A program made the translations under genes and the position numbers. A model generated the notes under the pieces. That model was not told the origin of the DNA. It saw only the letters and a list, made by a program, of their open reading frames with translations, and did not search any database. Of a stretch of 64,000 nt of DNA, positions 9,762-57,132 are shown in pieces; positions within the stretch are counted from its first letter, which is position 1, and each line of letters starts with the position of its first letter. This DNA is from Escherichia coli. GTDB taxonomy: Bacteria > Pseudomonadota > Gammaproteobacteria > Enterobacterales > Enterobacteriaceae. The stretch lies in assembly GCF_016903815.1 (NCBI RefSeq), contig NZ_CP069973.1. The stretch is one strand, 5' to 3'.

Positions 9762-11033
<1,272 letters not shown>

Positions 11034-11054: not shown

Positions 11055-11080
11055 AAAAGGTCCGCTTGCGGGCCTTTTTT
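11055..11080. terminator. Rho-independent (bidirectional-looking) terminator after fabF
   Basis: aaaaggtccgcttgcgggcctttttt: GC stem flanked by an A-run and a T-run. Confidence 0.6.
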
Positions 11081-11081
11081 C

Positions 11082-11794
11082 TTGTGCACAGAAAACCCCC
11101 AGCTAGGCTGGGGGTTCCGGAAAGCTTTCAGCTTTAAGCCAGTTATTAAAACCCCTTTTGATTTGTTAAAACACCTTGCGGTCTGGCAACTGCAAGTGTC
11201 AAACAAGAAATCAAAAGGGGGTCCCAATGGGGAACGAAAAGAGCTTAGCGCACACCCGATGGAACTGTAAATATCACATAGTTTTTGCGCCAAAATACCG
11301 AAGACAGGTGTTCTACAGAGAGAAGCGTAGAGCAATAGGCAGTATTTTGAGAAAGCTGTGTGAGTGGAAAAGTGTACGGATTCTGGAAGCTGAATGCTGT
11401 GCAGATCATATCCATATGCTTGTGGAGATCCCGCCCAAAATGAGCGTATCCGGCTTTATGGGATATCTGAAAGGGAAAAGCAGTCTGATGCTTTACGAGC
11501 AGTTTGGTGATTTGAAATTCAAATACAGGAACAGGGAGTTCTGGTGCAGAGGGTACTACGTCGATACGGTGGGTAAGAACACGGCGAAGATACAGGATTA
11601 CATAAAGCACCAGCTTGAAGAGGATAAAATGGGAGAGCAGTTATCGATTCCCTATCCGGGCAGCCCGTTTACGGGCCGTAAGTAACGAAGTTGGATGCAA
11701 ATGTCAGATCGTGTGCGCCTGTTAGGGCGCGGCTGGTAAGAGAGCCTTATAGGCGCATTTGAAAAACCTCCGGCTATGCCGGAGGATATTTATT
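11082..11794 (+). mobile_element. IS200-type insertion sequence, copy 1
   Basis: 713-bp block identical to 27980-28692; left-end hairpin cccccagctaggctggggg; single Y1 transposase gene; absent from this intergenic site in E. coli K-12 as I recall it. Confidence 0.9.
11227..11685 (+). CDS. tnpA: IS200/IS605-family Y1 (HUH) transposase TnpA
   Basis: 152 aa from internal Met with RBS aaaggggg; HUH motif HIHMLVEIPP; ORF-track 5' extension judged non-coding. Confidence 0.9.
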   Translation: MGNEKSLAHTRWNCKYHIVFAPKYRRQVFYREKRRAIGSILRKLCEWKSVRILEAECCADHIHMLVEIPPKMSVSGFMGYLKGKSSLMLYEQFGDLKFKYRNREFWCRGYYVDTVGKNTAKIQDYIKHQLEEDKMGEQLSIPYPGSPFTGRK

Positions 11795-11863
11795 AGCTTT
11801 TATTCTGACTTGTTCCGTAGTGAACATGCTGCCACACTAACAATTCTCTGATAAGGAGCCGGT

Positions 11864-12673
11864 ATGTTCTTAATTAACGGTCATAAGCAGGAATCGCTGG
11901 CAGTAAGCGATCGGGCAACGCAGTTTGGTGATGGTTGTTTTACCACCGCCAGAGTTATCGACGGTAAAGTCAGTTTGTTATCGGCGCATATCCAGCGACT
12001 ACAGGATGCTTGTCAGCGGTTGATGATTTCCTGTGACTTCTGGCCTCAGCTTGAACTAGAGATGAAAACGCTGGCAGCAGAACAGCAAAATGGTGTGCTG
12101 AAAGTGGTGATCAGTCGCGGTAGTGGCGGGCGAGGATACAGCACATTGAACAGCGGACCGGCAACGCGGATTCTCTCCGTTACGGTTTATCCCGCACATT
12201 ACGACCGTTTGCGTAACGAGGGGATGACGTTGGCGCTAAGCCCGGTGCGGCTGGGGCGCAATCCTCATCTTGCAGGTATTAAACATCTTAATCGGCTTGA
12301 GCAAGTATTGATCCGCTCTCATCTTGAGCAGACAAACGCTGATGAGGCGCTGGTCCTTGACAGCGAAGGGTGGGTTACGGAATGCTGTGCGGCTAATTTG
12401 TTCTGGCGGAAGGGCAACGTAGTTTATACGCCGCGACTGGATCAGGCAGGTGTTAACGGCATTATGCGACAATTCTGTATCCGTTTACTGGCACAATCCT
12501 CTTATCAGCTTGTCGAAGTGCAAGCCTCGCTGGAGGAGGCGTTGCAGGCAGATGAGATGGTTATTTGTAATGCGTTAATGCCAGTGATACCCGTACGTGC
12601 CTGTGGCGATGTCTCCTTTTCGTCAGCAACGTTATATGAATATTTAGCCCCACTTTGTGAGCGCCCGAATTAG
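11864..12673 (+). CDS. pabC: Aminodeoxychorismate lyase
   Basis: 269-aa class IV aminotransferase-fold ORF, conserved position after fabF. Confidence 0.9.
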
Positions 12674-27653: not shown

Positions 27654-27911
27654 ATGAAAAACGTAAAAACCCTCATCGCTGCGGCGATTTTAAGCTCCAT
27701 GTCATTTGCCAGCTTTGCGGCTGTCGAAGTTCAGTCAACGCCAGAAGGCCAACAAAAAGTCGGTACTATCAGTGCTAACGCGGGGACAAATCTGGGATCG
27801 CTGGAAGAGCAGCTGGCGCAAAAAGCGGATGAGATGGGCGCAAAATCATTCCGTATTACTTCTGTAACCGGTCCAAATACCCTCCATGGAACAGCAGTAA
27901 TTTATAAATAA
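27654..27911 (+). CDS. bhsA: Multiple stress resistance protein BhsA (YcfR)
   Basis: 85-aa ORF with signal peptide, YdgH/BhsA family. Confidence 0.9.
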   Translation: MKNVKTLIAAAILSSMSFASFAAVEVQSTPEGQQKVGTISANAGTNLGSLEEQLAQKADEMGAKSFRITSVTGPNTLHGTAVIYK

Positions 27912-27950
27912 GCATTAACCCTCATTAATGCCTGCTACTGCTGATTTTTT

Positions 27951-27981
27951 CCCCGCGACATGCCGTGTCGCGGGGATTTTT
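27951..27981 (+). terminator. Rho-independent terminator after bhsA
   Basis: ccccgcgacatgccgtgtcgcggggattttt; IS200 copy 2 begins in its T-tail. Confidence 0.7.
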
Positions 27982-28692
27982 GTGCACAGAAAACCCCCAG
28001 CTAGGCTGGGGGTTCCGGAAAGCTTTCAGCTTTAAGCCAGTTATTAAAACCCCTTTTGATTTGTTAAAACACCTTGCGGTCTGGCAACTGCAAGTGTCAA
28101 ACAAGAAATCAAAAGGGGGTCCCAATGGGGAACGAAAAGAGCTTAGCGCACACCCGATGGAACTGTAAATATCACATAGTTTTTGCGCCAAAATACCGAA
28201 GACAGGTGTTCTACAGAGAGAAGCGTAGAGCAATAGGCAGTATTTTGAGAAAGCTGTGTGAGTGGAAAAGTGTACGGATTCTGGAAGCTGAATGCTGTGC
28301 AGATCATATCCATATGCTTGTGGAGATCCCGCCCAAAATGAGCGTATCCGGCTTTATGGGATATCTGAAAGGGAAAAGCAGTCTGATGCTTTACGAGCAG
28401 TTTGGTGATTTGAAATTCAAATACAGGAACAGGGAGTTCTGGTGCAGAGGGTACTACGTCGATACGGTGGGTAAGAACACGGCGAAGATACAGGATTACA
28501 TAAAGCACCAGCTTGAAGAGGATAAAATGGGAGAGCAGTTATCGATTCCCTATCCGGGCAGCCCGTTTACGGGCCGTAAGTAACGAAGTTGGATGCAAAT
28601 GTCAGATCGTGTGCGCCTGTTAGGGCGCGGCTGGTAAGAGAGCCTTATAGGCGCATTTGAAAAACCTCCGGCTATGCCGGAGGATATTTATT
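27980..28692 (+). mobile_element. IS200-type insertion sequence, copy 2
   Basis: Identical to 11082-11794 by eye, same orientation. Confidence 0.9.
28125..28583 (+). CDS. tnpA: IS200/IS605-family Y1 transposase TnpA
   Basis: Same 152-aa protein as copy 1. Confidence 0.9.
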   Translation: MGNEKSLAHTRWNCKYHIVFAPKYRRQVFYREKRRAIGSILRKLCEWKSVRILEAECCADHIHMLVEIPPKMSVSGFMGYLKGKSSLMLYEQFGDLKFKYRNREFWCRGYYVDTVGKNTAKIQDYIKHQLEEDKMGEQLSIPYPGSPFTGRK

Positions 28693-28704
28693 TTTATCCA
28701 GGAT

Positions 28705-29670
28705 TTACAGAGTTTGTGGGCTCACTTGATGACGGCGGACATCCACCGGCATCCCGGAACGGACATCCATCACATGTTGCATCACTTCAGCGTCAGTTTG
28801 TGCTGCATCTTTAAATGATTGCATTGCGCTATTCAGCGTAATTGGCAGCAGCTGCGGATCGTCATCAATCTTCTCTGACAGCGGCTGATGTACTTCAACC
28901 AGACGCGCACCGTTTGGTTCGGCAGAGACTTTTATCGGAGTGTTGATGATATTCACTTTGGTGCCTGGGGTGACCTGGCTAAAGAGTGTTTTGATATCGT
29001 CATCCCGCAGACGAATACAGCCAGAACTTACCCGCATGCCAATGCCGAAATCGGCGTTCGTACCATGAAGCAAATAAACGCCGCCATAGGCCGCCAGACG
29101 AATCGCATGATGGCCCATTGGGTTATCCGGTCCAGCCGGCACTACCGCAGGCAACTCAATTCCCTGTGCTTTATAACGGGCGCGGATGTTTGCCGTTGGC
29201 GTCCAGGTTGGGTTTGCTCGTTTGTCTGAAACGGTGGTCACCATTGTCGGTGTCAGCGTGTCACCACCCAACTGACCAATACCTATTGGATACACGGTTA
29301 CCGAATTTTTACCCGGCGGGTAGTAATAGAGACGCAGCTCCGCAATATTGATCACAATGCCTTCGCGCGGCGCATCTGGAAGTAGGGTTTGCAACGGGAT
29401 CGTTAACACGCTGCCCGCGCGCGGTACGTAAGGATCAACGCCGGGGTTAGCCTGTAACAGAGCGAGAAAGCCGACGTTATATTTTTTGGCGATGGCTTCC
29501 AGAGAACCACCGTCATTTTCCACCACATGAAATTTGTTTTCGCCAACCAGACGACTGCCCGCTGGCGGCAGCGGCCAGGTGTTGGCTTTTGCCGGTAGCG
29601 CCAGCGCCACGGCAGCGGCGAACGTAAAAAACGTTAGCCAGCGAGAAAAACGCGTTTTGATCATCACCAA
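28705..29670 (-). CDS. ldtC: L,D-transpeptidase LdtC (YcfS)
   Basis: 321-aa ORF: signal peptide, LysM-like region, YkuD domain with catalytic Cys (SSGCIRL). Confidence 0.9.
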   Translation of the reverse strand: MVMIKTRFSRWLTFFTFAAAVALALPAKANTWPLPPAGSRLVGENKFHVVENDGGSLEAIAKKYNVGFLALLQANPGVDPYVPRAGSVLTIPLQTLLPDAPREGIVINIAELRLYYYPPGKNSVTVYPIGIGQLGGDTLTPTMVTTVSDKRANPTWTPTANIRARYKAQGIELPAVVPAGPDNPMGHHAIRLAAYGGVYLLHGTNADFGIGMRVSSGCIRLRDDDIKTLFSQVTPGTKVNIINTPIKVSAEPNGARLVEVHQPLSEKIDDDPQLLPITLNSAMQSFKDAAQTDAEVMQHVMDVRSGMPVDVRRHQVSPQTL

Positions 29671-47983: not shown

Positions 47984-48463
47984 AATGGCAGCCTCTTGGT
48001 TGAGTATTAATAACTCACCACCAAGGTTTTCCACGACCATAAGGGTGGTGAGGCGTACAGGGGTGGAAATACCGGTCAACCAAGAATCCGGCCAGCCTTG
48101 CAGCTGCCCTGCACGCCCCACCATAATCTGAATGTGGCTGTGCTTGACGCATAAAAAAACCGCCTGAGCGCGGTTATGCGCTTGATTGAATTCCGGGTTT
48201 CCACGCCCGGCACCCGTTTTATGAGGTGCAGGTGCACTATAATTCCACCCGTTCTGGTTTTCAATAGCTACATTCAACATTTTCTCTTACCTTTCATCAC
48301 CGAAGTGAACTTTGTTGATGCGGTGCCTGGTGCCTCCAGGTGACGTTAACCAGTTAACAATTAACGCCGGATACAGAGAATCCACCCATAACACTGTTTT
48401 TGGTTTTAACTGTTCCGCGTGCGCTTAGCCGCATTCACCGCATCACAAAATTCACTTTAAAAA

Positions 48464-48515
48464 GGGTGGCAGAGCAGTCACGGAGTAGAACTGATGCCAC
48501 CAAAGACTACACATG
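48464..48515 (-). ncRNA. dicF: DicF-like small RNA
   Basis: Minus-strand ggtggcatcagttctactccgtgactgctctgccaccc plus U-tail matches recalled DicF 3' two-thirds at about 34 of 38 nt; 5' end approximate. Confidence 0.6.
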
Positions 48516-56799: not shown

Positions 56800-56976
56800 A
56801 TAACTGCGGGTGCTTGAGGCTATCTGTCTCAGGCATGAACACCAAAAGGCAGATAGAGAAAAGCCCCAGTTAACATTACGCGTCCTGCAAGACGCTTAAC
56901 ATTAATCTGAGGCCATATCTATGCGACACATAGAGATTAGCCTCTTACGGACCGAAAGGTCAAGGAGAAGCAGGCT
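56800..56976. promoter_or_regulatory. hok mRNA leader with mok-like upstream ORF and expected antisense Sok region
   Basis: 19-codon upstream ORF (ATG 56921) whose TGA overlaps the hok ATG; hairpin gcgtcctgcaagacgc; Sok position inferred, not observed. Confidence 0.35.
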
Positions 56977-57132
56977 ATGAAGCAGCAAAAGGCGATGTTA
57001 ATCGCCCTGATCGTCATCTGTTTAACCGTCATAGTGACGGCACTGGTAACGAGGAAAGACCTCTGCGAGGTACGAATCCGAACCGGCCAGACGGAGGTCG
57101 CTGTCTTCACAGCTTACGAACCTGAGGAGTAA
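56977..57132 (+). CDS. hok: Hok/Gef-family type I toxin
   Basis: Hand translation MKQQKAMLIALIVICLTVIVTALVTRKDLCEVRIRTGQTEVAVFTAYEPEE (51 aa), essentially the HokD/RelF sequence as recalled. Confidence 0.85.
   Translation: MKQQKAMLIALIVICLTVIVTALVTRKDLCEVRIRTGQTEVAVFTAYEPEE

Follow-up and report, generated by a model that had tools for sequence, protein, structure and literature searches.

When an insertion sequence lies directly against the terminator of a host gene, its position may reflect how the element selects a target, how selection sorts insertions after the event, or nothing more than chance. The problem arises twice in the window (the whole 64,000-nucleotide stretch of Escherichia coli DNA that was analysed, to which positions below refer), where 713 identical bases stand as direct repeats at 11082-11794 and 27980-28692. 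The window matches positions ~1,212,112-1,276,111 of E. coli strain 7/2 (NZ_CP023820.1) in plus orientation, and the gene order there is fabG-acpP-fabF-(tnpA)-pabC-yceG-tmk-holB ... comR-bhsA-(tnpA)-ldtC-mfd. Salmonella, suggested by the names of the Rfam hits, was rejected as the source in view of this match and of the 100% identity of the element to IS200C copies of E. coli. Elsewhere in the window, prophage-type RNA genes at 48041-48515 and 56808-56979 (C4 antisense RNA, isrK and DicF on the minus strand, sok on the plus strand) form a cluster that suggests a cryptic lambdoid or P4-like prophage segment. A preliminary description of this DNA had placed an IS200 element at the edge of the fabF terminator and another inside the T tail of the bhsA terminator, and had read this as the structure-directed targeting of the IS200/IS605 family. 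Very probably two identical IS200C elements did insert, without target duplication, into the T tracts of these two terminators, and in doing so behaved as IS200-group elements normally do.

Two IS200C insertions and their empty sites

Empty sites were sought in contigs that encode exactly the PabC and BhsA proteins of the window. Downstream of fabF (9792-11033, plus strand, an intact 413-aa frame according to the ORF list and to RefSeq for strain 7/2, whose sequence here is identical), the empty fabF-pabC site reads GGTCCGCTTGCGGGCC TTTTTTCTT|AGCTTTTATTC in five other E. coli assemblies (L001 and L003-L006), whereas the window reads ...TTTTTTCTT GTGCACAG...ATATTTATT AGCTTTT and two assemblies are occupied likewise. 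Comparison of the empty and occupied reads thus yields an insert of 711 bp with no target duplication. Because TT is common to the left flank and the right end, the junction carries a 2-nt ambiguity and copy 1 may start at 11082, 11083 or 11084; by choice among these it is written here as 11084-11794 (plus strand). The host terminator occupies 11055-11083 on the plus strand and was returned by a terminator scan (MFE -13.3 kcal/mol). Its hairpin begins at 11055, 22 nt past the fabF stop codon at 11033, and consists of the stem-loop GGTCCGCTTGCGGGCC at 11059-11074 (11055-11078 with A:T pairs), followed by the T tract TTTTTTCTT at 11075-11083. The terminator is unchanged in the IS-free assemblies, its full nine-base tail TTTTTTCTT is kept ahead of copy 1, and the junction recurs in 221 of 5,426 complete E. 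coli genomes. A further E. coli lineage (L023) has a different IS200C allele in the fabF-pabC terminator, distinguished by 5 SNPs; the flank haplotype and the right junction differ as well (TTTATT-TAGTTTTTATTCC versus TTTATT-AGCTTTTATTCT, in comparison with window positions 11084-11800), which suggests independent insertions into one terminator, a putative hot spot.

The second site lies between bhsA (27654-27911, plus strand, 85 aa) and ldtC (28705-29667, minus strand), both full length and annotated by RefSeq in strain 7/2, and it is empty in all ten assemblies compared. The closest of these, L015 and L017, read GCGGGGA TTTTTTTT ATCCAGGATTT, and the window reads GGGGATTTTT GTGCAC...TTTATT TTTATCC. 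Set against each other, these reads show that a host tract of eight T residues has been split five and three, and that copy 2 occupies 27982-28692 (plus strand). The bhsA terminator (27950-27981, plus strand; terminator scan, MFE -23.0 kcal/mol) begins 39 nt past the bhsA stop codon at 27911, with the stem-loop TCCCCGCGACATGCCGTGTCGCGGGGA at 27950-27976 and the left five T at 27977-27981; the right three T stand at 28693-28695 on the plus strand, where L015 and L017 read GGGGATTTTTTTTATCCAGGATTT without interruption. All ten IS-free strains have this terminator, with T7 or T8 tracts. In the window it retains five of its eight T, and the left-end hairpin of the element follows 10 nt further on. 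This junction is rarer than that at fabF (90 of 5,426 complete genomes). On the minus strand the right-end hairpin of copy 2 is followed by TTTTT, ~22 nt beyond the ldtC stop codon, which itself lies 12 nt from the right end of the element; judged by its form, this hairpin could serve as a new ldtC terminator.

Comparison with empty sites was the check that the preliminary description had called for, and its outcome is that both T tracts and both hairpins are host sequence, kept in IS-free strains; its account of two genuine IS200 copies, one at the fabF tract and one inside the bhsA tract, agrees with the empty sites. The host hairpins are predicted to be Rho-independent terminators, since each is a GC-rich stem-loop with a T tract, lies 3' of a co-oriented gene and is kept where the element is missing. 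Three further E. coli sites, at galU, kdsA and yccU, gave the same result, in each case a 711-bp insert without duplication at the 3' end of the T tract; in all, insertion is at the 3' end of the tract at four of the five sites and inside it at bhsA. That the hairpin and T tract might instead belong to the element and travel with it is thus a reading to which we give next to no credence: mere adjacency to the element is all that speaks for it, whereas the empty sites at five loci keep hairpin and T tract and the hairpin sequence differs at every site, and on these grounds it was rejected. At the kdsA-ldr site (L029) the IS200C copy ends ATATTTTTT rather than ATATTTATT, with an A to T change at position 709, in the right-end cleavage region.

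The two IS200C copies, 711 bp each, are 100% identical to each other, and copy 1 is 100% identical also to IS200C copies in many E. coli genomes. Sequences like IS200C are found in 3,096 of 5,426 complete E. coli genomes, at up to 35 places per genome; roughly 9,400 of the places are chromosomal, and 1,288 are on plasmids, often as truncated copies adjoining IS1. Each copy in the window has a single transposase gene, tnpA, and no tnpB, as is characteristic of the IS200 group. In copy 1 it occupies 11227-11685 (plus strand) and encodes a 152-aa Y1 HUH transposase (Pfam PF01797, Y1_Tnp; RefSeq 'IS200/IS605-like element IS200C family transposase'), and in copy 2 the same 152-aa frame stands at 28125-28583. 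Upstream of it, an Rfam match to STnc490 (11094-11217, plus strand; 146.1 bits against a gathering score of 56) covers the region of the tnpA 5'UTR and the art200 antisense RNA. Terminal inverted repeats are absent, and the left and right subterminal hairpins differ from each other, again as in the IS200 group. The left-end hairpin, AACCCCCAGC-TAG-GCTGGGGGTT (that is, AACCCCCAGCTAGGCTGGGGGTT), lies on the plus strand at 11094-11116 and folds at -18.7 kcal/mol; it recurs in copy 2 at 27992-28014, so that each left end does bring a hairpin of its own, as had been proposed. From other members of the family it is presumed to be the hairpin that TnpA binds. In published work it is a bidirectional terminator at nucleotides 12-34 of the element, which shields tnpA from impinging transcription (Ellis 2015, PMC4513863). 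The right end of copy 1 (11767-11794, plus strand) consists of the hairpin CCTCCGGCTATGCCGGAGG at 11767-11785, with arms CCTCCGGC-TAT-GCCGGAGG and a fold of -15.9 kcal/mol, and the 9-nt T-rich tail ATATTTATT. A terminator scan finds this end terminator-like on both strands, with the minus-strand reading CCTCCGGCATAGCCGGAGG TTTTTCAAAT at 11767-11785 and, in copy 2, at 28665-28683. The element belongs to the IS200 group by its Y1 transposase, its subterminal hairpins, the lack of inverted repeats and of target duplication, and its insertion 3' of a short sequence.

A survey of left-end junctions

To weigh preference against chance, the comparison was widened to 126 unique junctions, comprising those of the window, 10 places in E. 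coli where the same TnpA is encoded, and at least 120 loci from a scan of species-representative genomes with the 25-mer of the left-end hairpin as query. Among the matches listed, the scanned loci come from Enterobacterales, Vibrio, Oxalobacter, Mailhella and Desulfovibrio, Peptococcaceae and Oscillospiraceae, and essentially each copy is preceded by a GC-rich hairpin and then a T-run, the hairpin sequences all being different. Counted back from the element, and among the matches listed, T occupies position -1 in 124 of 125 flanks, positions -2 and -5 in 120 each, -4 in 113, -6 in 98 and -7 in 82, while position -3 is variable and positions -8 to -10 are rich in G and C; the flanks end, in other words, in TTNTT. 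Equally constrained is the spacing between the last G:C pair and the element, with a mode of 6-7 nt, a range of 5-10 nt in 120 of 126 junctions and only 2-4 nt in the other six (among the matches listed). All surveyed junctions are fixed insertions that survived selection.

Coincidence, whereby two copies merely happen to adjoin terminator-like sequences, would have been easier to entertain had the window been considered in isolation, with its two copies only and with terminator scan counts in 2-kb regions that do not exceed shuffled expectation. The survey leaves it with practically no chance of being right: all 126 independent junctions among the matches listed show the same arrangement, and coincidence was rejected for that reason. 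What the placement shows is a genuine insertion preference of IS200-type elements, and not luck.

A more serious alternative is that the transposase recognizes sequence only, that is, TTNTT in single-stranded DNA, that insertions survive selection mainly in the intergenic regions 3' of genes, most T-runs there being terminator tails, and that the hairpin is a by-product. IS200 or IS1541 insertions inside genes are known (hisD984, inv, caf1A); a hairpin therefore cannot be an absolute requirement, and such insertions accord with targeting by sequence alone. Of TTTTT sites in 3' regions, moreover, 64% already have an upstream fold at or below -8 kcal/mol and 60% one at or below -10, and recognition of a 4-5-nt target is the rule of the family (He 2013, PMC3597680). 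The frequencies at the junctions are nonetheless higher: among the matches listed, the 40-nt flanks of the 126 junctions have a median MFE of -18.1 kcal/mol, with 100% at or below -8 and 96% at or below -10 (p = 5e-16 against the 3'-region TTTTT sites). A stricter measure was also applied. A strict hairpin was defined as one with a perfect stem of 5 bp or more, 3 or more of them G:C, whose loop measures 3-8 nt and whose foot lies no more than 12 nt from the element. Such a hairpin is present at 109 of 125 junctions (87%) among the matches listed, as against 28.8% of TTNTT sites that follow long ORFs on their 3' side by up to 100 nt (Fisher p = 1e-32); for controls from the same loci the figures are 10.6% for TTNTT anywhere, 12.9% for TTTTT anywhere and 17% for random positions. 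The 16 junctions that fail this definition have mostly bulged or long-loop hairpins. The narrow range of stem distances (mostly 5-10 nt, among the matches listed) and the occurrence of the pattern in non-autonomous derivatives and across many taxa also speak against sequence and selection alone. Given that T-runs in 3' regions fall well below the observed frequencies, a survival filter is not the whole story, although it may contribute because every surveyed copy is a fixed insertion; as a full explanation it seems to us unlikely. The association of the target with a hairpin is very strong, and goes beyond what the family rule explains.

The scan also brought out short derivatives in which the IS200 left-end hairpin occurs without tnpA (L100-L109, L048, L075 and L039). 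These are a ~430-bp element in Serratia sp. Ag1 (L100-L109), present in ~8-9 copies, a ~245-bp element in an Oscillospiraceae MAG (L048) and, in Dickeya (L075 and L039), IS200 sequence that stops shortly past the hairpin, which represents either a ~95-bp element or truncated ends. Each lies directly 3' of a hairpin and T-run, and they look like non-autonomous, MITE-like elements that are mobilised in trans with the same target preference. The 25-nt left-end hairpin itself, AACCCCCAGCNNNGCTGGGGGTTCC, is exact in Gammaproteobacteria, Oxalobacter, Desulfovibrionaceae (Mailhella) and Firmicutes MAGs (L030-L149, among the matches listed), while the 10 nt between it and the tip of the element depend on lineage. 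Such exact conservation of a 25-mer implies that the hairpin is under strong constraint or that its horizontal spread is recent.

Reading of the target

As far as is known, TnpA binds hairpins of the element and not of the target. In the mechanism worked out for IS608 and ISDra2, one strand is excised as a circle and inserted 3' of a tetra- or pentanucleotide in single-stranded DNA, of which the lagging-strand template is an example, and IS200/IS605 elements recognize their target through its pairing with a guide tetranucleotide that directly precedes the foot of the hairpin (He 2013, PMC3597680). In IS200C the left-end hairpin is preceded by AGAA and the right-end hairpin by AAAAA, and the cleavage sites are rich in T (TTNTT in the target, TTATT at the right end). 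With these putative A-rich guides and T-rich cleavage sites, a T-run target is what the family rule leads one to expect, and the TTNTT consensus fits it. Covariation of guide and target across subfamilies gave no informative signal, since every guide has GAA at its end and every target is rich in T. The linkers are less typical, being ~10 nt on the left (GTGCACAGAA) and 9 nt on the right (ATATTTATT), so that the left is barely the longer and depends on how the hairpin foot is defined; typical IS200/IS605 linkers are 15-16 nt on the left versus 8 nt on the right (He 2013, PMC3597680). In its interpretation the preliminary description is largely right, though imprecise where it ascribes structure-directed targeting to the family as known, the established rule being guided by sequence (He 2013, PMC3597680).

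On the likely reading, IS200 elements integrate 3' of TTNTT in single-stranded DNA, with a neighbouring hairpin strongly favoured. The site lies mostly 5-10 nt downstream of this GC-rich hairpin, on the strand that reads hairpin and then T tract, and the upstream terminator hairpin is left with a T-rich tail of ~5 nt or more. The T-run is probably recognized, as in IS608 and ISDra2, through pairing with the AGAA guide that precedes the left-end hairpin, to judge from the complementarity of the two, and the substrate is presumably single-stranded DNA of the lagging-strand template. More tentatively, and as a possibility rather than an expectation, we propose that the terminator hairpin itself forms part of the target that transposases of the IS200 group use. 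The neighbouring hairpin might be sensed, perhaps, in one version of the proposal, as a mimic of the right end, where a 9-nt T-rich tail with TT at its end likewise follows a GC hairpin. Alternatively, the folded hairpin might serve to keep the adjacent T tract accessible in single-stranded DNA. Two points count against the sensing of a hairpin. The tails of the targets (mode 6-7 nt) are shorter than the 9-nt tail of the right end that they would mimic. In the IS608 model, further, the two hairpin-binding sites of the TnpA dimer are filled by the element's own ends during integration, and with both occupied there is no obvious place for a hairpin of the target.

A different source of exposed DNA would be transcription, if the target were the non-template T tract laid open in a terminating RNA polymerase. 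The orientation of the insertions is as this would predict: the element is co-oriented with the upstream gene, always on its non-template strand, and it lies mostly 5-10 nt past the stem, where transcripts normally end. At 96 of 121 junctions the 150 nt upstream contain the stop of a co-oriented ORF of 100 aa or more, at a median distance of 52 nt (among the matches listed). At the other 25 of 121, also among the matches listed, no co-oriented long ORF is near, which argues against a dependence on transcription. The replication fork is favoured, too, by the orientation of the elements in the chromosome. The copies in the window are, we take it, co-directional with replication (from the strain 7/2 annotation and the E. 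coli map), as are presumably all five of the five IS200 sites in genome OZ039874.1 (from coordinates and synteny). Over distinct E. coli sites the figure is, on our assumptions, ~10 of 11 against ~55% expected from gene orientation (binomial p ~0.014), with replichore assignments that rest partly on the E. coli K-12 map. An orientation bias of IS200 with replication has also been published (PMC3971601). We accordingly rate exposure by the polymerase as unlikely.

Related systems and consequences

The association of IS200 with terminators is already known. Odaert et al. are said to have described in 1998 that IS1541, an IS200-like element of Yersinia pestis, inserts downstream of genes, with terminator-like stem-loops at 8 of 14 sites that were proposed to be hot spots. 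The phenomenon, insertion at terminator-like stem-loops, is the same; the host and the element variant are different, and the present data consist of exact empty-site junctions, a TTNTT consensus and 126 of 126 junctions among the matches listed. A more recent study (bioRxiv 10.1101/2025.07.22.666184, dated 2026) finds terminator-like sequences over-represented upstream of insertion sequences, most strongly for IS200/IS605; its Supplementary Table 1 gives, for 40.2% of 20,314 IS200 copies, a terminator that precedes the ORF and lies outside the element, with 0.59-4.1% in the same column for other families in neighbouring rows. That work (bioRxiv 10.1101/2025.07.22.666184) is statistical, without resolution at the level of junctions, and reads the terminators as a limit on transposase expression, with no analysis of target choice. 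In the literature on IS1541 or IS200 and intrinsic terminators, no explicit statement of a target preference was found except in that study. The additions made here are proof at junction level for five sites, a target consensus, the spacing, and a generality of near 100% across taxa among the matches listed.

IS608 and ISDra2 share with IS200C the Y1 HUH TnpA, the subterminal hairpins, the lack of inverted repeats or duplication, insertion 3' of a short sequence and, probably, a guide 5' of the hairpin foot that is complementary to the cleavage site and an orientation biased with replication. They differ in their targets, TTAC and TTGAT, for which no target hairpin is known, whereas that of IS200C is a T-run with an adjacent hairpin; IS200C differs further in its left linker, ~10 nt long where most of the family has 15-19 nt, and in the lack of tnpB. 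The closest enzymes that act on host hairpins are the RAYT (TnpA-REP) proteins. According to two reports, these and REP-targeting insertion sequences act on extragenic GC-rich hairpins in single-stranded DNA (PMC3333891, PMC8266576). REPs are repeats with a conserved motif, however, while the hairpins targeted by IS200C are each different, each a gene's own terminator. A likeness from further afield is that of class C group II introns, which Robart, Seo and Zimmerly reportedly showed in 2007 to insert just downstream of intrinsic-terminator stem-loops. They too are mobile and use terminator stem-loops as harmless landing sites, but their chemistry, as retroelements equipped with a ribozyme and a reverse transcriptase, is entirely different, and the likeness is one of convergence. 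As an identity for the present element such an intron was considered and rejected, given its length of 711 bp, a Y1 transposase as its only ORF, and STnc490 as the only Rfam match.

For the host, the insertions appear to cost little. That they leave the flanking genes intact had been noted from the outset, and it holds for all four: fabF, bhsA and ldtC are full length, and so is pabC (11864-12673, plus strand; ORF list, with the same protein in IS-free strains), which keeps 69 nt of its native upstream sequence. Read-through into pabC and antisense transcription toward ldtC may nevertheless be altered, as the preliminary description proposed. A terminator is thus likely to be a harmless landing site for IS200C. 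The arrangement likely also suits the element, as the host terminator and the left-end hairpin of the element would together shield tnpA from read-through, if the two act as their sequences lead one to predict. The copies in the window are two clean textbook cases of a mobile element that lands with least harm, past a gene's terminator, and the habit is strict, holding at 126 of 126 junctions, among the matches listed, in many bacterial groups. For annotation, IS200 copies are to be expected at terminators, and the host hairpin should not be mistaken for part of the element. If the hairpin is indeed used as target, this would be a combined capture by structure and sequence, undescribed for Y1 HUH transposases, and intrinsic terminators would be a near-universal, cross-phylum 'safe harbour' for IS200. 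Should TnpA of the IS200 type prove to sense the hairpin, it would be an example from nature of an enzyme that integrates DNA where a structural landmark, and not a long sequence, marks the site, which would bear on transposon biology and on why IS200 is so well tolerated and so quiet.
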